NCBI GenBank assembly: GCA_964602665.1
Contig: CAZRRH010000003.1
Coordinates: forward strand, 66,963 to 130,962
Origin: an uncultured Candidatus Saccharibacteria bacterium
GTDB lineage: Bacteria; Patescibacteriota; Dojkabacteria; SC72; WJKH01
Direction of reading: 5' to 3'
DNA length: 64,000 nt
The notes beneath the pieces are model-generated. The model saw only the letters and a program-made list of their open reading frames with translations. It was not told where the DNA came from and made no database searches. Positions 5,327 to 53,708 of the stretch are shown piece after piece; within the stretch, counting starts at the first letter, position 1; every line of letters begins with the position of its first letter. Made by a program: the position numbers and the translations under genes.

Positions 5327-7144
5327 TTATGTTTTAAGGATAGCTAAAAATGCTGCCTGCGGAATTGTAACACTTCCAATTTGTTTCATTCTCTTTTTAC
5401 CTTTCTTTTGCTTTTCTAATAGCTTTTTCTTGCGGGAGTAGTCACCACCATAAAGCTTGGCTGTAACATCTTTGCGAAAGGCTCTTATTGTCACTCGTGC
5501 AATTATTTTCGCGCCGATTGCGGCTTGTATTGGTACTTCAAATTGTTGTCTTGGTATGACTCCCTCCATTACCTCGAGTATTTTCATGGCTCTATCTCTG
5601 GCAAATTCGCGTGTCTCCAAAAAGCTTAGTACGCCAATCTCTTCTCGATTGACAAGTATTGATATTTTGACAACATCGACAGGAAAATAATCGATAAATT
5701 CGTACTCCATGGAGGCGTATCCGCTTGAGTATGTTTTGAGTAGATCAAAAAAGTTTGAAATAAGCGAAGCTAGGGGCATGTCATAATGTAGCGATACATA
5801 CTGTTTTGCAATATCACCCTCCTGATTGAGATATTTTGTGTTTACATATTGCCCTCGTTTTTGCTCACAAAGCTGCATTATTGAACCAATATATTCAGCT
5901 GGTGTCATTATATCTATACGCACCCACGGCTCTTGTATTTCTTTTATTTGAGATGGCTCCGGGAGCTCTTGTGCTGTTTGAATCATTAATTCAGTATTAT
6001 TTGTAAGAAAGACTTTATACTCAACTGTTGGTGCTGTTATAAGTAAATCAACATCAAACTCTCTTTCTAACCTTTCCTGCACTATTTCCATGTGTAGTAG
6101 CCCTAAAAAACCGCATCTAAATCCCGTACCAAGCAAATTGGATTTCTGGTAGGTATAGCTAAGTGATGAGTCATTAAGCAAAAGCTTGTCCATAGCTAAT
6201 TTAAGTTGCTCATAATCAGCCGTATCTGTTGGAAAAAATGTCGCAAAGACATTAGCTTTTGGTGGTTGATAGCCTGGCAGAGCAGATGTATCTAGCTTAT
6301 TGCTTACTGTATCACCAACTGTAAAATACTTTATATCTTTTAGTCCTGTAGCAATATATCCTACTTCACCAGTCTCAAGTTTTTCTACTTCCTGCATATC
6401 TGGGGTAAAAATACCAAACTCTATTGGATTAAAGGTTATCTTTTTTCTAAGTATGTAAAGCTGTGGAAATTGTGTTGCACCATAATTCTTCTTGGTTAAA
6501 TTTCCATTGAAAATTCTTACTGAAATCATAACTCCCTTGTGCTCATCGTAAAAAGAGTCAAATATTAGTGCTTGAAAAACATCTGCGGGCAGATTTGATT
6601 TCTTTGGATCGGGTGTATCTTGAACTATGCGATCAAGTAGTTTATCGACATTTTGTCCTGTTTTACCCGACACTTGTACAACGCTATCTCTATCAATCCC
6701 AAGAAGGATTTCTATCTCATCAAGTCTTCTTTCTATATTTACTCCCGGGACATCGATTTTGTTTAACGCGGGAATTATTACAAGGCCTTCGTTATGGGCT
6801 TTTTGTAGTGTCGAAATTGTTTGAGCCTGAACGCCTTGTGTAGCGTCTATTAATAATACTGCTGATTCGCAGGCATGTAATGATCTTGAGACCTCATATG
6901 AGAAGTCTACATGTCCTGGTGTGTCTATGATGTTTAATTCGTAGCCTTTCCAGTTTAGTTGCACGGGCTGTAACTTTATAGTTATGCCTTTTTCTTGCTC
7001 AAGCTCTAGCGTGTCAAGTATTCTCTCAGTGTGTGCCGATTTGCTTTTATGCTCTTGTGATGGGTTGCATAGCTCAATTATACGGTCTGCAAGAGTAGAT
7101 TTACCGTGATCTATATGTGCTATTATTGAGAAATTCCGTATCAT
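5327..7144 (-). CDS. lepA: elongation factor 4 (LepA)
   Basis: N-terminal IRNFSIIAHIDHGKSTLADR G1 motif, DTPGHVDF G3 motif, 605 aa with LepA-type C-terminal domain. Confidence 0.95.
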   Translation of the reverse strand: MIRNFSIIAHIDHGKSTLADRIIELCNPSQEHKSKSAHTERILDTLELEQEKGITIKLQPVQLNWKGYELNIIDTPGHVDFSYEVSRSLHACESAVLLIDATQGVQAQTISTLQKAHNEGLVIIPALNKIDVPGVNIERRLDEIEILLGIDRDSVVQVSGKTGQNVDKLLDRIVQDTPDPKKSNLPADVFQALIFDSFYDEHKGVMISVRIFNGNLTKKNYGATQFPQLYILRKKITFNPIEFGIFTPDMQEVEKLETGEVGYIATGLKDIKYFTVGDTVSNKLDTSALPGYQPPKANVFATFFPTDTADYEQLKLAMDKLLLNDSSLSYTYQKSNLLGTGFRCGFLGLLHMEIVQERLEREFDVDLLITAPTVEYKVFLTNNTELMIQTAQELPEPSQIKEIQEPWVRIDIMTPAEYIGSIMQLCEQKRGQYVNTKYLNQEGDIAKQYVSLHYDMPLASLISNFFDLLKTYSSGYASMEYEFIDYFPVDVVKISILVNREEIGVLSFLETREFARDRAMKILEVMEGVIPRQQFEVPIQAAIGAKIIARVTIRAFRKDVTAKLYGGDYSRKKKLLEKQKKGKKRMKQIGSVTIPQAAFLAILKT

Positions 7145-7234
7145 CTTGTTTAAATTTATATTTTAAATGCTAAATTTTTAATTTTATAAAATCACGCTTT
7201 GCGTTAACTCAATCTAAAATCTAAAATTTAGAAT

Positions 7235-7606
7235 TTAAAATTTAAAATTTGTCTTAGTCCTAATTTTATTCGCGTAAATCGTCATATCGTAAAAATAGTT
7301 ATTAAAAAATTGCTCATCAGAATTATACTGATTATCACCTTTATAAAAATCTAACCAGAACTCCTTAAGCCGACAAAGCTCCTGAAGATAGCCAAGCATT
7401 TTTTTATCTATTGCGTATTCAATTGATATGTAAAAGAGATCCATTGCTCTTAAATATGCTGAATTGGCGATCTCCTTATCTAGTTTCTTCCACTTCATTG
7501 CTCGAAATACTTCGCTCCCAATGTTTGCAAGTTGCTCTGCAGTATGCATTTGATACCATTTGTCCTTATCTACATGGGATTTATATTTATTTTGTGACTT
7601 TTTCAT
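7235..7606 (-). CDS. hypothetical protein
   Basis: 123-aa ORF, no motifs recognised. Confidence 0.3.
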   Translation of the reverse strand: MKKSQNKYKSHVDKDKWYQMHTAEQLANIGSEVFRAMKWKKLDKEIANSAYLRAMDLFYISIEYAIDKKMLGYLQELCRLKEFWLDFYKGDNQYNSDEQFFNNYFYDMTIYANKIRTKTNFKF

Positions 7607-7750
7607 ATGTTTTTTTTTATATACGCAATATAGCTATTATATCATATCTACATCTAAAAAGTCTGTGTAGCAAAGTGAAAACTTTTTCACTTGATTTATT
7701 AAATTAAGCAGGAATATAATATAGACAATATAATTTTTAAATATTAAAAA

Positions 7751-8056
7751 ATGGAGCAATTTCATATATATCAGAAACAGATACTAAAAAGCTTAATGTA
7801 TAAATCTTCATTAAGATTTAATGAACTAATGATTCCAGAATTGTCTTCTAAGCATTTTAATTATCATCTTAAGAAGCTTATCGAAGGTGGCTATGTGACA
7901 AATAAAAACAGGCAGTATGTTTTAACAGATGAGGGTAAAGAGCTTGTAAAACGAAAAGATCTATTTAATACATTTTCAGATAAACTAGAATTTGTAAGAA
8001 ATCCTCAAAAAGGAGTACAATTCAGGGAGATAATTACAGAGGCAGAGGGCTATTAG
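7751..8056 (+). CDS. small winged-helix-like DNA-binding protein (putative transcriptional regulator)
   Basis: 101 aa. Pattern LRFNELMIPELSSKHFNYHLKKLIEGGYV...YVLTDEGKELV resembles a wHTH recognition helix plus wing. Confidence 0.3.
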   Translation: MEQFHIYQKQILKSLMYKSSLRFNELMIPELSSKHFNYHLKKLIEGGYVTNKNRQYVLTDEGKELVKRKDLFNTFSDKLEFVRNPQKGVQFREIITEAEGY

Positions 8057-8140
8057 GAATACTTATAAAAACATGGAAGAATTACAAAGAGTTAAAACAT
8101 TTTTAGAATTTGATAAGTTACAAAATAAATATAGGCGTAA

Positions 8141-8169
8141 TTGACAAACTTCATCATTTATGTTAGTAT
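8141..8169 (+). promoter_or_regulatory. sigma70-like promoter upstream of DGR target gene (TTGACA-17-TAGTAT)
   Basis: TTGACA at 8141-8146, 17-nt spacer, TAGTAT at 8164-8169, about 30 bp upstream of the 8199 start. Confidence 0.3.
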
Positions 8170-8198
8170 CCAAGTAACTAAGTTTATTAATTCATGAT

Positions 8199-9227
8199 AT
8201 GAAGAAAAAATCTTTATTAATAAGTTACTTCTTTGTTTCGGGTCTGTTTCTAATGACCTGTCTTTTATTAGGAAGGAATTTTAAAGTATCAGCAACAAGT
8301 ACTCCCCCTATTACTGATCAGGTATCAATATTAGATCAGATATACACGAGATTAGTTACAAGCGGATTTGGTACGGAGTCATCAGGAGATCATGGTAATT
8401 TTGGTGTAAAATGGAATAGAATAGCAAGTAGTGCGTATTGGATACCAGATGGAGATGCAACTGCAGAAGATGTTGTAACGGGAAAAACCTTTTATGGAGG
8501 TAACAGAACAGAACAAACGGGAACATTGTCATTAACAGGAGATGCTACGGTTGATGATGTAGTTTCTGGAAAGACATTTTATTCAGATTCATTCACTAAA
8601 TTAACAGGTACAGCACCCGAACCAATAGATTTTTCTCTTATGCAATTTAATGAATATGATGATTATGAAGGATTAGCAACTGGTAGTATTGATCCAACAA
8701 ACCCGATAGATGATTACGAAGGAGATGAAGCTATATGGACAAATACATCGACAAATGTATGGAAGGATGAACGAACAGGTCTTTTCTGGAGTGCAGATGT
8801 AAGCACTTTGGGATTGGGACTTCCAGCAACATATTCTAATGCTTTTCCTAATCAAGTCCATACAACTTGCCCATTCTTTTCTTCCAATCCAAGAGCTAGC
8901 TATGATGGACTAACAGCCTCATGTGGTAACGCTATAAATGTATGTGGAACATTATCATATGATAGGGACAATGATGGAGAAGCAGAGACGGACTGGTATC
9001 TACCAACTCAAAAAGAATTAATGCAGGCCTACATAGATGGTATGTATAATCAAGCAGGAGCTAATCTAGAAGGCGCGGCGACATTTACCACTACAAACTT
9101 TTTCTGGTCCTCCTCGGAGGTGTCCTTCTATCCTACGAACGCATGGGGCGTTTCCCTGCTCGTCGGCAACACGAACCTCAACGCTAAGGCAAGTACTTTC
9201 GCTGTGCGTTGTGTTTCTCGGGACTGA
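8199..9227 (+). CDS. DGR target protein: N-terminally membrane-anchored surface protein with C-terminal DUF1566/C-type-lectin-fold-like variable domain
   Basis: N-terminal TM/signal (LLISYFFVSGLFLMTCLLLG). Internal GKTFY repeat motifs. C-terminal DWYLPTQKEL...FWSSSEVS...NAWGVSLLVGNTN...FAVRCVSRD matches the conserved DGR-target lectin-fold motif pattern. The last about 41 codons are the VR. Confidence 0.8.
   Translation: MKKKSLLISYFFVSGLFLMTCLLLGRNFKVSATSTPPITDQVSILDQIYTRLVTSGFGTESSGDHGNFGVKWNRIASSAYWIPDGDATAEDVVTGKTFYGGNRTEQTGTLSLTGDATVDDVVSGKTFYSDSFTKLTGTAPEPIDFSLMQFNEYDDYEGLATGSIDPTNPIDDYEGDEAIWTNTSTNVWKDERTGLFWSADVSTLGLGLPATYSNAFPNQVHTTCPFFSSNPRASYDGLTASCGNAINVCGTLSYDRDNDGEAETDWYLPTQKELMQAYIDGMYNQAGANLEGAATFTTTNFFWSSSEVSFYPTNAWGVSLLVGNTNLNAKASTFAVRCVSRD
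9102..9224 (+). repeat. DGR variable repeat (VR) at 3' end of target gene
   Basis: 123 nt aligning gap-free with 9532-9654. The 5' 24 nt and 3' 24 nt are identical. All 22 mismatches lie where the other copy has A. Locally GC-rich (A-depleted). Confidence 0.85.
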
Positions 9228-9531
9228 TATGATTAGAATTTGATAATTTTCAACTTAAAATTTCCCCGTGGGATATTTAGGGCTATTGACATATACCTTA
9301 TCAATTGGTATCTTACAACTGTGCGTGGATTCTACCATTTCAATCCCCAAGACGGGCAATGGATAGTAGAGAAGGCTTGATTATCAGTCCGTTCCACTAC
9401 ACCCTGTGAGACATTTTTGGTTTTTACAGGGTATTATTATTCAACAAACCTTTTCTGTCGCAATACAGATCAGTTTTGTGGTGTGTCAGATGATTTTCAT
9501 CTGAACAAAGTCAGTGGAAAACAATGTTGTG

Positions 9532-9654
9532 TTCTGGTCCTCCTCGGAGGTGTCCAACAATCCTACAAACGCATGGAACGTAAACCTGAACAACGGCAAC
9601 ACGAACAACAACAATAAGACAAATACAAACGCTGTGCGTTGTGTTTCTCGGGAC
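9532..9654 (+). repeat. DGR template repeat (TR)
   Basis: 123-nt copy of the VR that is rich in AAC/AAT codons. Every VR/TR difference is an A in this copy. Non-coding position between target gene and avd. Confidence 0.85.
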
Positions 9655-9666
9655 TTATTTTCAAGC

Positions 9667-10029
9667 CTATACGCTTTTTTGTTTCTGAGCCCATGTATAC
9701 CACCCGTAAAGCATTTTGGCGATCTCTTCGTTTTGAGACATTATGTAAGTGTATTGTTTATGAGTGATAAGTTTTAGTTCATGAGCCATACGCAGTCTTG
9801 ATTTCAGTTTGTCAAATGAAGCTGAGGTATTGCGAATGGTCTTAGTTTTCTCAATGTTTGACAGGACATTAGTTGAAATAATCCCATCGAGTACATCCCA
9901 TGTACATTTAAGAATATCTTGTCCAAGTGTGTACTTGTATTCCTTCCTGAAGTTTTTCACAAGTAGATACAAATATTTCAAAAGCTTGTACACGGCTATA
10001 TATAAGGGGAGTTCATCTAAATTGCTCAT
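9667..10029 (-). CDS. avd: DGR accessory variability determinant (Avd, four-helix-bundle protein)
   Basis: 120 aa. N-terminal LPLYIAVYKLLKYLYLLVKNFRKEYKYTLGQDI matches the Avd/four-helix-bundle consensus (LPVYK...KNFPKEEKY.L..QI). Overlaps the RT gene by 4 bp. Confidence 0.8.
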   Translation of the reverse strand: MSNLDELPLYIAVYKLLKYLYLLVKNFRKEYKYTLGQDILKCTWDVLDGIISTNVLSNIEKTKTIRNTSASFDKLKSRLRMAHELKLITHKQYTYIMSQNEEIAKMLYGWYTWAQKQKSV

Positions 10030-11228
10030 TTTTGTTTTTTAACTAAAATAAAATATGAAAAATTGTCATCTATTGGAACCAAGTAATTTTTCAAAGTTCC
10101 AAAATGATTTTCATACAGATCTCTACGAAGATTGAAGCAGTTTGCATGTTTAAAATGTCCGTAGTAAGAATTAACCATAGCTAACATCTTTTTAAGCTCC
10201 TTTTCTGTCGGAGGAGTAGATAATGGTAATGCCATCTGTTTTTGATTTTGGGAAACAAGTAGTTTTCCTTTATTGAAATAGTGAAGCTTTGTTTTGAGGT
10301 TTTGAACAACACGCTTTCGAGCAAGTGCATATTTAGGCTTAACTATATAACCAATGAAATCTATTCCCGAATAAACGGAGTTGTATTTATCTTTGTTCGG
10401 ATGAAGTGTCAGTTTTAGTCTTTTCTGCAAAAATGTGTCAATTTGGTCTCTCCATGATTTGATCTTATCAAGATCATTTGAAAGAATGATAAAATCATCG
10501 ACATATCGGACGTAATATTTGATTTTCAATTCACGTTTTATAAATTGATCGAGCTCATTCAAGTACACATTAGCAAAAAACTGAGAAGTAAGATTCCCTA
10601 TAGGAAGCCCCTTGTCTTTCCCAGCATTAAAAAGCGTTTTGTGGGGCGGTATCTGTTTTAAAAGTGCCTGATCGCCTTTAAAGTAGAAATTCTTAGTTGG
10701 ATTATGATTAATAATTATTTGGGTAAGCCAGATTAAATCAGCTTGTTTTTTGATAGGAAAATTTCTCATAATATATCTGATTATGATTTTTTTCAAAATA
10801 TCCTTGTCAATGCTTGCAAAAAAGCTTCTGATATCAAACTGACCGTAGTAAGCTGTGATCGTGTTGTTTTTAGTTGCAGAGCGGATCATTTTTTGAGTAT
10901 AGGTAATTGCTAATTGTAAGCCTTTCATTTTTCTACAGGCAAAAGAAGCATATATAAAACTTTTTTCAAAATATGGCTCTAGGGTAGAAACCAACAAGTG
11001 ATGAACAATCCGGTCTCTAAAGTCAGCTGCAAAAACTTCTCTCAATTTGGGGTATGTGACAACAAAACAAATAGATCTATCAGGTTTATATGTTCTATCT
11101 TGCAGTTCTTCAAAAAGCTTCAGTAAATTTGACTCGAATTTCATTTCGAACCTAAGGGCGTTGATAGTAGTTCTTTTATTCTTTCTGCATGAGTAATATG
11201 CTTTTAGTAAATTTTCGAGTGTAAACAT
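10026..11228 (-). CDS. DGR reverse transcriptase
   Basis: 400 aa. RT motifs including YVRYVDDFIIL (the YxDD box). Lies downstream of avd and adjacent to the TR/VR pair. Confidence 0.9.
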   Translation of the reverse strand: MFTLENLLKAYYSCRKNKRTTINALRFEMKFESNLLKLFEELQDRTYKPDRSICFVVTYPKLREVFAADFRDRIVHHLLVSTLEPYFEKSFIYASFACRKMKGLQLAITYTQKMIRSATKNNTITAYYGQFDIRSFFASIDKDILKKIIIRYIMRNFPIKKQADLIWLTQIIINHNPTKNFYFKGDQALLKQIPPHKTLFNAGKDKGLPIGNLTSQFFANVYLNELDQFIKRELKIKYYVRYVDDFIILSNDLDKIKSWRDQIDTFLQKRLKLTLHPNKDKYNSVYSGIDFIGYIVKPKYALARKRVVQNLKTKLHYFNKGKLLVSQNQKQMALPLSTPPTEKELKKMLAMVNSYYGHFKHANCFNLRRDLYENHFGTLKNYLVPIDDNFSYFILVKKQK

Positions 11229-11503
11229 AGAATAATCTTTGAATGATTATTTTTCTAATTGATATTACCATTAAACTGATTGTTATGAAATGGCTTTTTA
11301 TTATTTTGTTTTTGCACATCATGTTTTTATTATTGCGATAAGCCTGAAGATAAAAATAAAGAGATCGAGCATAACATATAATTACATAAAAAATCTTTAC
11401 CAAGTAGTTTAGATTTTCTTCATTTATATCTTTTTAGCAAGCAGAATCGGCAATATGTATAGTTCATAGACAAAGATTGACATAATTAAAAAAATTAGCT
11501 ACA

Positions 11504-12676
11504 ATGCTTAGTATGAAAAAATTAACAAAAATTTATCTTTTTCTTTTAATATTTTTATTACTTCCTCCAATTGCCTTCGCTTCTTCACCAACCTATCTTG
11601 GAGGAACAGCCAATGTTCCAAGTACGGCGGGTTCGTTATATCTAAATACGAACAATGCATCAGTATCTTTAGATACTGAAACTGGAAATCTTTCAGGTTA
11701 TGGATGGTCAGATGATATTGGCTGGATTGATTTTGATAATGCAGGTGAAATTGCAACTTCAGCAAAAATAAACATGACAACAGGTATATTTGAGGGAAAG
11801 GCTGTAGCAGTAAATACAGGTAAATATCTTGATTTCTCCAATTATGGTAGCAATGTAAAACTGAATTTTGGCTTGAAAGAAATCACAGGTTATGGTTGGT
11901 CTGAAGATATTGGCTGGATAGATTTTAATGGAGTAATACTATATAGTGCAGATAGTGCAATTAAACCAGTTATAACTCAAATAGGGCTTATAAAAAGCAT
12001 TCCTGACAAAGATAAGCTTTACTACTATTTTACAGCAAATAGGGTTCGTATATGGGGAACCAGTGAAAAATATAGTGAAATCTTCTTTGCACATTCAAAT
12101 GGAACAACATACAAAACTCAGGCAGATATTGATGGTAAATTTTATATAGTAATTGATCTATTGAATGGAGAGAATGAATTAACATATTACAGTATTAATC
12201 TCGCATCAAATCGTTCAATAAATAAGATTTTAATATTAAATATTGATCCAACATACGGTTTAAAAACAGGAAATAATGGAGAACTAATACCGGAAGTTCA
12301 AATTGTAGAAAGTTCTGAGATAGAGACGGAAACTGTAAAGGAAAATTCTGAGGAAGTTACTCCGCCAATAGAAGCAAAGAAAATAAGGGTTATTGATTTA
12401 GATGGTAATCCGATAATAAATAAGCTAATAACGATAGAGGGAATAGATTACATCACTGATTCTTTTGGATACATCTATATAAACGAAGAGATAGTAGGAG
12501 ATTTTGTTCTTTACGACGGAAAATCTTATCCTATTAAGCTATCAGGAGAGGATCTAATTTTGGATTTATCAAGTCAGAAAGGAAGTTTTAACTATCTGTA
12601 CTGCTTTTTCCCTTTGATAGCTTTACTACTTATCGTTTTGACAGTGGTTATTGTCCGTAGAAAAAAGATATCATAA
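11504..12676 (+). CDS. secreted/cell-surface repeat protein with C-terminal membrane anchor
   Basis: Signal peptide (LFLLIFLLLPPIAFASS). Two GYGWS(D/E)DIGWIDF(D/N) repeats. C-terminal hydrophobic helix plus RRKK tail. Confidence 0.45.
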   Translation: MLSMKKLTKIYLFLLIFLLLPPIAFASSPTYLGGTANVPSTAGSLYLNTNNASVSLDTETGNLSGYGWSDDIGWIDFDNAGEIATSAKINMTTGIFEGKAVAVNTGKYLDFSNYGSNVKLNFGLKEITGYGWSEDIGWIDFNGVILYSADSAIKPVITQIGLIKSIPDKDKLYYYFTANRVRIWGTSEKYSEIFFAHSNGTTYKTQADIDGKFYIVIDLLNGENELTYYSINLASNRSINKILILNIDPTYGLKTGNNGELIPEVQIVESSEIETETVKENSEEVTPPIEAKKIRVIDLDGNPIINKLITIEGIDYITDSFGYIYINEEIVGDFVLYDGKSYPIKLSGEDLILDLSSQKGSFNYLYCFFPLIALLLIVLTVVIVRRKKIS

Positions 12677-25089: not shown

Positions 25090-25161
25090 ACGCCCCCGCC
25101 ATTAGGATCCTGCCATTGGGAAATTAAATTTCCTAATGGCAGGGCCTATTGGCGGGGGCGT
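25090..25161 (+). terminator. long imperfect GC-rich hairpin downstream of hup (putative terminator or structured element)
   Basis: About 31-bp arms (ACGCCCCCGCCATTAGGATCCTGCCATTGGG / TCCTAATGGCAGGGCCTATTGGCGGGGGCGT) with 4 mismatches and a 10-nt AT loop. Starts 25 bp after the hup stop. No clean U-tract. Confidence 0.45.
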
Positions 25162-28070: not shown

Positions 28071-28529
28071 TTATTTGACTATTTTATACTGTTTTGTGCC
28101 GTTTGGAGTATTCACTGTAATTTCATCGCCAATTTTTTTCCCAAGGACAGCAATTCCTATTGGAGAATGTTGGGAAACTTTCTTCTGTAGTGGGTCAACT
28201 TCGTTTTCATTGACTACGGTGTATTCTGAAATCTCCTTTGTTTCTACTGATTGTAGACGAACTGTCGACCCAAGGCATACCGTCTTGTTTTTGCATTCTG
28301 AAACAACTTTAGCATTTTTTATTATTTCTTCAAGCTCCAGTATTCTTGTCTCGTTATCTTGAAATTGATCAAGTGCTAATTTATATCCTTCATTTTCACT
28401 TAAATCTCCATCTGACCTTAATTCATCTAGTGTGTTTACAAGCGTTTTCCTTATAGGACCGCTTTTAAGTGCATGTTCGTCTTTCATTTTGGCTAAACCT
28501 TCTGCTGTTAGCTCTATTGACTTTTTCAT
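28071..28529 (-). CDS. greA: transcription elongation factor GreA
   Basis: 152 aa. C-terminal SPIGIAVLGKKIGDEITV FKBP-like motif and N-terminal coiled-coil. Confidence 0.8.
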   Translation of the reverse strand: MKKSIELTAEGLAKMKDEHALKSGPIRKTLVNTLDELRSDGDLSENEGYKLALDQFQDNETRILELEEIIKNAKVVSECKNKTVCLGSTVRLQSVETKEISEYTVVNENEVDPLQKKVSQHSPIGIAVLGKKIGDEITVNTPNGTKQYKIVK

Positions 28530-29391: not shown

Positions 29392-29853
29392 ATGCAAATG
29401 CAAAGCTACGAACTAACTAGAGAAAAAATCCTCCAGTTGCGAAAGGAGTTATTTATCCTTAAGGGTAAGAAACTTACGGAGATAGCTTCCAGATTGCTAT
29501 TGGCCAGAGAGGACAATCTAGGTGAAGGGGACGACCCTTTTCACGAAATCTCCGTTGAGAAGCAAAATATTGAAGAAAGAATCTCCCAAATTGAAACCGT
29601 CTTAAAAAATGCGAAACAAATTAAGAAAAAAAGCAAAGATACTGTTGAATTAGGCTCTGTTGTTAAGGTTGAGACAGAAGGAGTTTGTGATTTATTCCAG
29701 ATTGTAAGCTCAATTGAGGCTCAGCCTTTTGAAAGAAAGGTCTCAAATATTTCTCCTATCGGAGAGGCTCTGATTGGCAAAAAAGTAGGGGATGTTATTG
29801 TCGTAAAATTAAAAAACCTAACAAAGGAATATAAAATACTCTCAATAGAGTAG
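29392..29853 (+). CDS. GreA/GreB-family transcription elongation factor (second paralog)
   Basis: 153 aa. C-terminal SPIGEALIGKKVGDVIVV motif. Confidence 0.7.
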   Translation: MQMQSYELTREKILQLRKELFILKGKKLTEIASRLLLAREDNLGEGDDPFHEISVEKQNIEERISQIETVLKNAKQIKKKSKDTVELGSVVKVETEGVCDLFQIVSSIEAQPFERKVSNISPIGEALIGKKVGDVIVVKLKNLTKEYKILSIE

Positions 29854-52892: not shown

Positions 52893-53708
52893 CTACGCGG
52901 ATCTGTATAGTCGCCAGCTATAAAGCAAAATTGCGCATGAAACACTCACATTGAGGGAGTCGTTTTTGCCTAGCATTGGTATTTTTACTGTTAAATCGTT
53001 ATTTTTACTCCAGAACTCTGATAAACCATGATGCTCGTTTCCTAAAATAAATGCTGATTTAGAGGGTAAAGAAATTTTGCTATTTCCAAGAAGGTTTTTG
53101 CTAAAAGGGTCTGCAGTGATAATATTAAAACCATTTTCTTTGCAAAAAGCAAGAGCTTCGTTTTCGGTCATTATTTGCCATTTTGTTGTGAAAAATGTCC
53201 CAACGCTACTTCGGATTGCGCTTTGAGAATAAATATCTGTACTTTGATTTGTAAGAACAACGCCATCTATACCTGCACCATCAGCACTTCTTAGCATTGC
53301 GCCAATATTTCCAGGTTTTTGTATGTTATCAAGAATTAAAATACAACTCTCTTCTTCTTTCTTAAGTTCTGTTGAAATTTTTGTTAAAGAGTCATTGCTA
53401 ATTTTATTACATATTCCGATTATCCCTTCTGATAAATTCCTATATTTTACCCTTTCGTATAATGCCTCTGGGATAATATAAATATCTGCTTGCACAGATT
53501 TAATAGCTAAATTCTGCAAAATTTTATCCGATTTTTGTGAGCAAATCCATATCGAGGTAAATTTATACTCTGCATTAATCGCAAATTCTATTTCTTTTAA
53601 CCCCTCAATGATAAAAAGATTCGTTTTGTCTCTTTCACGCTTTTTGGTTAGTTTAAGGAGCTGTTTATATTTAGCATTATCCTTACTGCTTATAAATGAG
53701 GGTTGCAT
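52893..53708 (-). CDS. SpoU/TrmH-family RNA 2'-O-methyltransferase
   Basis: LILDNIQKPGNIGAMLRSADGAGI and SPOUT C-terminal motifs. Confidence 0.7.
   Translation of the reverse strand: MQPSFISSKDNAKYKQLLKLTKKRERDKTNLFIIEGLKEIEFAINAEYKFTSIWICSQKSDKILQNLAIKSVQADIYIIPEALYERVKYRNLSEGIIGICNKISNDSLTKISTELKKEEESCILILDNIQKPGNIGAMLRSADGAGIDGVVLTNQSTDIYSQSAIRSSVGTFFTTKWQIMTENEALAFCKENGFNIITADPFSKNLLGNSKISLPSKSAFILGNEHHGLSEFWSKNNDLTVKIPMLGKNDSLNVSVSCAILLYSWRLYRSA

Follow-up and report, generated by a model that had tools for sequence, protein, structure and literature searches.

Diversity-generating retroelements (DGRs) are most abundant in uncultivated ultra-small bacteria, and what is known of how they work comes from one phage element, whose essential RNA scaffold lies 3' of the template. 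In this element, from the Bordetella phage BPP-1, the RNA for complementary DNA (cDNA) synthesis consists of 20 nt of avd, the template repeat (TR) and, downstream of it, a spacer of 140 nt (Sp). Base pairing joins Sp53-56 to TR118-121, and synthesis is primed by the 2'-OH of Sp A56; two nucleotides further on, Sp59-70 pairs with the avd segment upstream of TR to form the 'cPRT Stop', and a stem-loop, adenosines and an Avd-binding stem-loop come next (Handa et al., bioRxiv 10.1101/2023.10.23.563531). The RT-10 motif, which is Rfam RF03022 (Phage_DGR), was placed between TR and brt by Weinberg et al. 2017, who guessed that other DGRs have other motifs. Here we describe a DGR in a stretch of 64,000 nucleotides (the window; all coordinates are counted from its first letter) from contig CAZRRH010000003.1 of an uncultured Candidatus Saccharibacteria bacterium. 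The locus is a complete chromosomal DGR, probably organized as two convergent units, one of them a ~350-nt DGR RNA gene with a 5' scaffold and its own promoter.

DGRs of the candidate phyla radiation (CPR) are the described relatives closest in content. Like the CPR elements of Wu et al. 2018 (PMC5758913) and clade 2 of Roux et al. 2021, the window DGR combines Avd and a C-type-lectin target with components on different strands. Architecture B3 makes up 90% of the CPR collection of Wu et al. 2018, and the accessible sections of both papers deal with gene order only, with no promoter, RNA structure or 5' scaffold. Our literature search found no description of a 5' scaffold or of an upstream or permuted DGR RNA, which does not prove that none exists. 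The parts of the window DGR are as follows.

8199-9227, plus strand: DGR target gene (open reading frame (ORF), Pfam), 342 amino acids (aa), with a hydrophobic N-terminus and a C-terminal Lcl_C (C-type-lectin-like) domain that carries the variable repeat (VR)
9102-9225, plus strand: VR, the final 41 codons of the target gene; a 124-nt repeat of TR
9226-9263, plus strand: conserved non-coding element directly after VR (GATATGATTAGAATTTGATAATTTT...AAAATTT), a candidate target-site DNA element (flank of the initiation of mutagenic homing (IMH) site)
9286-9314, plus strand: putative sigma-70-type promoter of the DGR RNA, TTGACA, 17 nt, TGgTATCTT (consensus and conservation)
9323-9531, plus strand: structured leader of the DGR RNA (covariation, minimum free energy (MFE), covariance model)
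9532-9655, plus strand: TR, 124 nt, with the template sense on the plus strand
9657-9669, plus strand: 3' tail of the DGR RNA (ATTTTCAAGCCTA), 13 nt long and following TR, pairing back to the leader
9667-10029, minus strand: avd, encoding 120 aa; follows RT in the RT-avd operon (Pfam bAvd, NCBIfam DivGenRetAVD)
10026-11228, minus strand: DGR reverse transcriptase (RT), 400 aa (RVT_1, E = 9e-16)

The repeats have the properties by which a DGR is recognized: differences between TR and VR are confined to template adenines, VR forms the 3' end of a gene for an Lcl_C-domain protein, and the changes fall mostly in codon positions 1 and 2. TR and VR align without gaps at an offset of 430 nt. All 22 mismatches between them are at an A of the plus-strand TR, and therefore the template sense strand is the plus strand, as an initial annotation of this region had proposed. 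With 41 adenines among the 124 nt of TR, the chance of this outcome for random mismatches is ~0.33^22, or roughly 1e-11 by hand arithmetic. Nineteen of the mismatches affect a first or second codon position of the target gene. The diversified adenines are all within 9556-9629, position 9629 being the last, and 9630-9652 of TR is free of A. Self-comparison of the whole window revealed this single TR/VR pair. The Lcl_C domain (Pfam PF07603) spans residues 188-339 of the target protein (E = 3e-13), and Lcl_C targets occupy the same position in relatives.

The window also encodes a DGR-type RT and the accessory protein Avd. A motif 4 of the form [I/L/V]GxxxSQ together with YxDD is diagnostic of DGR-type RTs. 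The window RT has PIGNLTSQ at residues 209-216 and YVDD at residues 242-245; across 35 homologues these motif residues are invariant or close to it, except that V243 is not listed. NCBIfam holds no DGR-RT model, and the protein matches only group II, retron and Drt models there, all below their cut-offs. The avd product matches Pfam bAvd at E = 3.6e-17 (63.3 bits, cut-off 40), and its best match, NCBIfam DivGenRetAVD, has E = 4e-19 and 68.9 bits, under the cut-off of 80. The RT and avd genes overlap in ATGA, and 11 nt separate the end of TR from the avd stop codon. With RT-avd on the minus strand and TR on the plus strand, the enzyme operon converges on its template, in agreement with what was first noted for this locus. 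RT homologues number in the thousands, and most of those named are from Patescibacteria. One homologue (P0099, 515 aa) contains both RVT_1 and bAvd domains and appears to be an RT-Avd fusion.

This arrangement differs from the phage element, in which one sense transcript carries avd-TR-brt with TR right after avd, and from the single avd-TR-RT operon of Architecture B1 (Wu et al. 2018). We took 170 related loci (given L numbers below) and scored RT, Avd and an adenine-biased repeat pair in each, finding TR in 111. TR is in sense orientation upstream of RT in 62 of these, antisense and downstream in 45, and sense and downstream in four; avd takes any of three positions in the 45 antisense-TR loci. 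The order RT-avd, antisense TR, target is found in all 13 window-type loci, whose RTs are 62-82% identical to that of the window, with one at 50%. Loci above 60% RT identity that yielded no TR include L001, where the contig ends early, and L081, L087, L088 and L167, where the script found no TR/VR pair. Thus, the antisense-TR arrangement is the rule in the lineage of the window and is common in the wider clade. The architecture had been called atypical, which holds against the Bordetella phage model but not among these relatives, and by itself it represents variation of a kind already described. That TR and RT can be on different strands was noted by Wu et al. 2018 (PMC5758913), and MyDGR calls the antisense-TR case rare.

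The initial annotation suggested that the leader preceding TR, placed at roughly 9320-9531, could be a structured non-coding RNA. Strong covariation bears this out and sets the structure at 9323-9531, with the following helices.

9330-9342 / 9360-9371, plus strand: P1, leader helix
9344-9346 / 9354-9356, plus strand: P1b, leader helix
9372-9390, plus strand: leader strand pairing with the TR 3' edge and the tail; candidate primer strand
9392-9400 / 9510-9519, plus strand: P2, long-range leader helix
9401-9407 / 9426-9432, plus strand: P3, leader helix
9444-9451 / 9472-9479, plus strand: P4, leader helix
9454-9458 / 9465-9469, plus strand: P4b, leader helix
9486-9493 / 9497-9504, plus strand: P5, leader helix

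Conservation of the leader is far above that of the surrounding non-coding DNA. RNAalifold analysis of 12 sequences yielded 42 pairs, of which 20 show compensatory double changes, with hardly any broken. From the same sequences we built a covariance model, which detected the motif in ~45 loci, always on the TR strand and ending at the TR start. The motif lies directly 5' of TR in five gene arrangements, including the canonical avd-motif-TR-RT order; its breadth among RT-(TR)-(avd) loci depends on weak unfiltered matches, which are at the expected place in 6 of 14. When 33 sequences were aligned with the model, 94.9% of cells were paired and 41 of the 42 pairs changed on both sides, figures that lean towards the structure because the alignment was fitted to it. 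A 58-pair hand structure was scored on an independent MAFFT alignment of 20 full RNAs. Here, 89.6% of cells were paired, compared to 35-46% with partners slid by 1-3 columns, and 48 of the 58 pairs changed on both sides. The covariation score was 0.54 versus 0.09-0.17 for slid partners, and none of 500 shuffles reached the observed value.

Folding of the single sequence 9323-9672 by MFE recovered every helix (z = -3.95), so that the check by folding and covariation proposed at the outset came out positive on both counts. The minus strand folds equally well in single-sequence prediction. On the plus strand, G-U cells outnumber A-C cells by 77 to 18 (156:22 in a larger alignment), and this excess indicates that the folded molecule is the TR-sense strand. 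Small ORFs within the leader were rejected, being not conserved in relatives. A second match to the model at 53278-53400 on the plus strand (12 bits, E about 1, model positions 55-182), with no RT or TR nearby, was dismissed as probable noise. Rfam searches of window positions 7000-12000 and ten related loci, with E-values up to 1, returned no relevant family.

The functional RNA extends beyond the leader and TR into the 13-nt tail, which pairs back to the leader: AAGGCTTGATTAT (9372-9384) pairs with ATTTTCAAGCCTA (9657-9669). The tail overlaps the avd stop codon of the opposite strand (9667-9669), and its sequence is absent downstream of VR. Twelve of the 13 pairs in the tail helix change on both sides, with the variants GGCTTGA/TCAAGCC, GGCCCGA/TCGGGCT, GGCTCGA/TCGAGCT and AGCCCAA/TTGGGCT. 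Next to this helix, AGTCC (9386-9390) pairs with GGACT (9651-9655), the last nucleotides common to TR and VR. The TR-edge helix is 88% paired in the 20-sequence alignment, and compensatory changes are seen in L089 (AGTTT/AAACT), L064 (TGTCC/GGACA) and L003 (AAATCC/GGATTT). Canonical loci have a perfect 7-nt complement in the same place: AATCATT/AATGATT in L036, GATCACT/AGTGATC in L028, AAACATT/AATGTTT in L033, AAACACT/AGTGTTT in L040 and TGCTACG/CGTAGCA in L045.

We examined the specificity of this complementarity by swapping partners between loci. RNAduplex energies for a 24-nt leader segment averaged -18.7 kcal/mol for cognate and -12.8 kcal/mol for non-cognate combinations. RNAduplex fit the Patescibacteria-type loci and chose other pairings in canonical loci, which have the 7-nt duplex; a longest-run test was therefore used. 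Between the TR edge and the 16 nt that precede P2, the longest Watson-Crick run came to 6.4 nt across 13 families, compared to 4.5 nt after permutation, and 0 of 20000 permutations reached the observed value. The complementary run is always at the homology boundary, 1-11 nt before P2. In the window, a single unpaired G (9391) lies between the TR-edge strand and P2, and the 3' strand of P2 (9510-9519) lies 12 nt upstream of the TR start.

Two other pairings near TR were set aside. One joins GAGAA of the leader to TTCTC of TR and was dropped, as it shows no covariation among relatives. The other is the hairpin AACGC-TGT-GCGTT (9628-9640), considered as a terminator of the TR RNA; it is weak, is located inside TR and was dropped because the RNA must run past it to form the tail helix. 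A separate observation concerns L012 (5505-5530) and the similar loci L011, L093 and L102, in which the gene order is target-leader-TR-avd with a convergent RT. The leader-pairing tail of these loci holds the apparent avd start codon (ATATTATGCCTC), and judging from the sequence, RNA folding could mask avd translation in loci of this order.

The TTGACA-17-TATCTT element to which the initial annotation drew attention is present at 9286-9314, and its counterparts keep their place in 11 of 12 window-type loci. By itself the match is not above chance, since the 5-kb region contains 24 promoter-like sites compared to 21.9 in shuffles. It becomes significant because the comparison with relatives shows conserved hexamers and spacing. 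When the VR-to-TR intervals of 15 loci were aligned, 11 of these rows had TTGACA as the -35 hexamer (9 out of 13 loci without redundancy); the -10 hexamer is TAnnnT, often preceded by TG, and the 17-nt spacing is kept, whereas the spacer and surroundings vary. We scored the promoter in the 12 window-type loci, window included, with enough upstream sequence. The best match was 9-10/12 in ten loci and 8/12 in L007, and in these 11 loci the -10 hexamer ends 7-9 nt ahead of the first conserved leader nucleotide. The twelfth locus, L002, has only a 7/12 match 15 nt upstream. For the ten best-scoring loci, background windows with equally high scores make up a fraction of 0.00-0.06 per locus.

The site also tracks gene arrangement. 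Loci of the target-leader-TR-avd order have weaker hexamers at the same distance from the leader. Among the loci scored in which the leader is downstream of avd on the same strand, most have no convincing promoter (4-7/12), and L063 scores 7/12 with a match at the same distance of 7 nt. L086-L088 have kept promoter, leader and TR intact, although an IS-like insertion (insertion sequence, IS) separates the target from the leader. This conservation suggests that the DGR RNA is likely to be a separate plus-strand transcription unit starting at ~9321-9323. We found no intrinsic terminator in the stretch from the target gene to the leader. A promoter-like site for the target gene itself was recognized by consensus scan only:

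8141-8169, plus strand: promoter-like site of the target gene, TTGACA-17-TAGTAT with TG (10/12 matches), 30 nt 5' of the ATG

The interval between VR and the DGR-RNA promoter has features of its own. The ~38-nt element at 9226-9263, just past the target stop codon, is kept in all window-type loci, and it remains with VR in L086, where the insertion parts VR from the leader. It may act as DNA in recognition of the target site, much like the IMH flank of the phage. The inserted sequence in L086-L088, relatives that are 77% identical, is an IS200/IS605-like element lying between this VR-flanking element and the leader. L086 (1-300 and 4735-5003), like L087 and L088, has the C-terminus of a transposase and CCCCGGCCTTCAGGC(C/T)GAGGGA hairpins; an IS hairpin is present at both ends of the 5-kb L086 contig, so that either the DGR looks IS-flanked or the contig is a circular permutation. 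Ahead of the promoter and after the target gene, L081, L082, L084 and L086 carry a perfect inverted repeat (ATCATCCGATCTTTAGATCGGATGAT) at the position of 9262-9283, which has decayed in the window to CCCCGTGGGATATTTAGGG. If this repeat aids retrohoming or ends target transcription, the window element may behave differently.

We then compared the RNA with that of the phage. The window DGR resembles the BPP-1 element in its DGR-type RT, its Avd and its adenine-specific transfer from TR to VR. The two RNAs are also alike in that TR is enclosed between a short duplex at its 3' edge and an adjacent long-range duplex reaching just upstream of TR. The order of elements in the window is the TR-edge duplex, a 1-nt linker, the long-range duplex, a stem-loop, an A/U-rich linker and more stem-loops, as in the phage. 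Unlike the phage RNA, which has these elements in Sp, 3' of TR, the window RNA has them 5' of TR; the strand shared by the two duplexes lies on the 5' side, only the 13-nt tail follows TR, and there is no ~140-nt structured spacer between TR and RT. In covariance-model searches the two RNAs show no similarity of sequence and structure: RF03022 had no match in the window or the ten related loci at E-values up to 1. As a control, the same model matched the phage spacer 3' of TR at 105 bits. Conversely, our leader covariance model did not match the Bordetella phage.

Gene spacing agrees with a scaffold 5' of TR. In the Bordetella phage the gaps are 0 nt from avd to TR and 144 nt from TR to RT, whereas motif-positive canonical relatives have 183-269 nt from avd to TR and 9-27 nt from TR to RT in six of the seven tabulated. 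The exceptions for the second gap are L127, the seventh tabulated, with 52 nt, and L030 with 273 nt. Moreover, the 3' flank of TR is occupied, depending on the arrangement, by avd or RT in antisense or by the start of either gene. These varied flanks leave no room for a common element there, and the 5' motif is common to all.

By analogy, the window RNA would be a circular permutation of the phage design that gives the order of a retron RNA. Retron RNAs (msr-msd) likewise have a structured primer-bearing RNA 5' and the template 3', a 5' strand being paired to the template's 3' end, and an internal 2'-OH primes reverse transcription back towards the scaffold (summarized in PMC8867640, together with established knowledge). 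The resemblance would be one of arrangement only. The window RT is not of the retron type, TR/VR repeats, Avd and adenine mutagenesis are present, and the DGR product is meant to replace a gene segment rather than persist as msDNA.

Taking the elements together, we infer the transcription start, protein binding, priming site and stop in the following model, in which the priming role of the leader strand is assigned by analogy with the phage. The minus-strand unit, the RT-avd operon, would supply both proteins. The plus-strand unit, driven by the promoter at 9286-9314, would produce a DGR RNA of ~350 nt composed of the leader (9323-9531), TR (9532-9655) and the tail (9657-9669). This RNA would fold with TR looped out between two helices, the 3'-edge/tail helix and P2, and RT and Avd would bind the leader in trans. 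Synthesis of cDNA would begin at ~G9650, primed from the leader strand (9386-9391); TR would be copied with errors at adenines, copying would stop at P2, and the cDNA would replace VR. The restriction of diversified adenines to 9556-9629, together with the lack of A in 9630-9652, is consistent with this priming site, with a start at ~G9650 and with the stop at P2. Because the tail follows TR and is absent after VR, it would mark TR, and not the target mRNA, as the only template.

Several points weigh against this model. The promoter is assigned from consensus and conservation, and given that no terminator precedes the leader, transcripts that read through from the target promoter may add to the RNA. 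Plus-strand transcription would run on into avd and RT in antisense, and the mRNA of RT-avd may likewise pass through TR in antisense. The TR-edge helix is short, with 5 bp in the window and a 3-bp invariant core, and it barely varies in the closest relatives, so its support comes mostly from comparison between families. E-values from our home-made covariance model are rough, and for distant loci it gives weak matches of 16-45 bits. By single-sequence folding of no more than 40 nt upstream and 100 nt downstream of TR, Handa et al. (bioRxiv 10.1101/2023.10.23.563531) predicted Avd-binding stem-loops just 3' of TR in many DGRs, including those of CPR, and additional RNA elements may be hidden in the antisense avd sequence.

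Three other explanations were weighed. TR could be transcribed mainly by read-through from the target promoter at 8141-8169, giving one RNA with target, VR, leader and TR; TTGACA-17-TATCTT would then be a chance match or a minor promoter, and the leader would still be an RNA scaffold. The missing terminator fits such a transcript, as do an inverted repeat after the target gene that has degenerated in the window and lacks a T-run in relatives, and the observation that promoter-like sites in this AT-rich region are no commoner than in shuffles. We nevertheless consider main transcription by read-through unlikely: the hexamers and their 17-nt spacing are kept while the spacer is not, the -10 hexamer holds its distance from the RNA in 11 of 12 loci, L086-L088 retain the promoter though the insertion parts target from leader, and the promoter is mostly missing where the leader lies downstream of avd. 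It is quite unlikely, in our view, that the leader is a TR-linked structured RNA that is neither the equivalent of a permuted spacer nor a primer. Such a leader may recruit RT-Avd, stabilize or process the RNA, or block run-on of reverse transcription, with priming elsewhere, from a 3' segment in antisense avd, from a nicked RNA 3'-OH or de novo. The ~5 bp of the TR-edge helix in the window and the stem-loops predicted downstream of TR in CPR DGRs would be compatible with this, and priming by nicked template RNA was proposed by Naorem et al. 2017 (PMC5703328). Against it, TR 3' flanks that differ cannot hold a shared element, whereas all architectures have the 5' motif, the complementarity of the leader strand to the TR edge is cognate-specific over 13 families and always 1-11 nt before P2, and the elements follow the same order as in the phage RNA.

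The third explanation, that the conserved region acts as DNA (a recombination or target-recognition site, or a cruciform) or encodes a small protein rather than an RNA, is very improbable. It could account for the equal folding of the two strands in single-sequence prediction and for the small ORFs that overlap the region at 9240-9380 and 9417-9617, and the Bordetella DGR does use a DNA cruciform beside VR (Wu et al. 2018). However, the preponderance of G-U over A-C cells is expected only for a plus-strand RNA, hairpin loop lengths vary in non-multiples of three, the ORFs are not kept in relatives, and the element travels with TR, not with VR.

For the favored model of an RNA scaffold 5' of TR, the relatives suggest a scope beyond that of the initial annotation, namely that the whole DGR clade would have its scaffold 5', and not 3', of TR whatever the gene order. 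We regard the chances as evenly balanced that a large clade of cellular DGRs uses a permuted RNA, with primer strand, stop duplex and protein-binding stem-loops in a ~200-nt scaffold 5' of TR. This clade would span Patescibacteria together with relatives in Desulfobacterota, Nitrospinota, Leptospiraceae and others. If so, scaffold and TR would form a self-contained module, sometimes with its own promoter, that works in trans with RT-Avd, and a trans-acting module would explain why gene order and strand are free in these DGRs. As an RNA family the scaffold would be new, with no entry in Rfam 15, and it would correct the assumption that RNA elements of CPR DGRs sit downstream of TR.

A covariation-supported consensus structure is thus available for the RNA of DGRs from another, very large clade, in which the scaffold is 5' of the template and the template cassette would be an autonomous module on either strand relative to the enzyme genes. 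The model predicts a ~350-nt RNA with defined ends, a cDNA start site, a stop helix and a tail that separates TR from VR. For annotation, the motif fixes the strand and boundaries of TR without VR. Compact DGR mutagenesis systems supplied in trans are a possible engineering use.

The remaining observations concern the surroundings of the DGR. A clear RT-avd promoter was sought and dropped; what is present is a weak TTCATA-17-TAATAT, below the scan threshold at 8/12 and kept in the nearest relatives alone:

11262-11290, minus strand: possible weak RT-avd promoter, TTCATA-17-TGgTAATAT (sequence reading; partly kept in the closest relatives)

The window has 34.5% G+C, and lepA adjoins the DGR both in the window and in its syntenic relative L081. 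Together with the organism names on homologous RTs, these features make a Patescibacteria (CPR) host probable. In the close relatives L082 (7226-9203) and L084 (4542-5926), the DGR instead has HTH_3, Phage_rep_O and serine-recombinase genes as neighbours, pointing to a mobile element or prophage. On a Nitrospinota contig (L028), the 5' part of a group II intron was detected at 6111-6209, ~1 kb downstream of the DGR RT (Rfam group-II-D1D4-6, 43 bits, under the gathering score). Finally, self-comparison of the window revealed a 72-nt near-perfect palindrome at 25090-25161 and 91-nt inverted repeats, about 66% identical, at 28077-28167 and 29751-29841.

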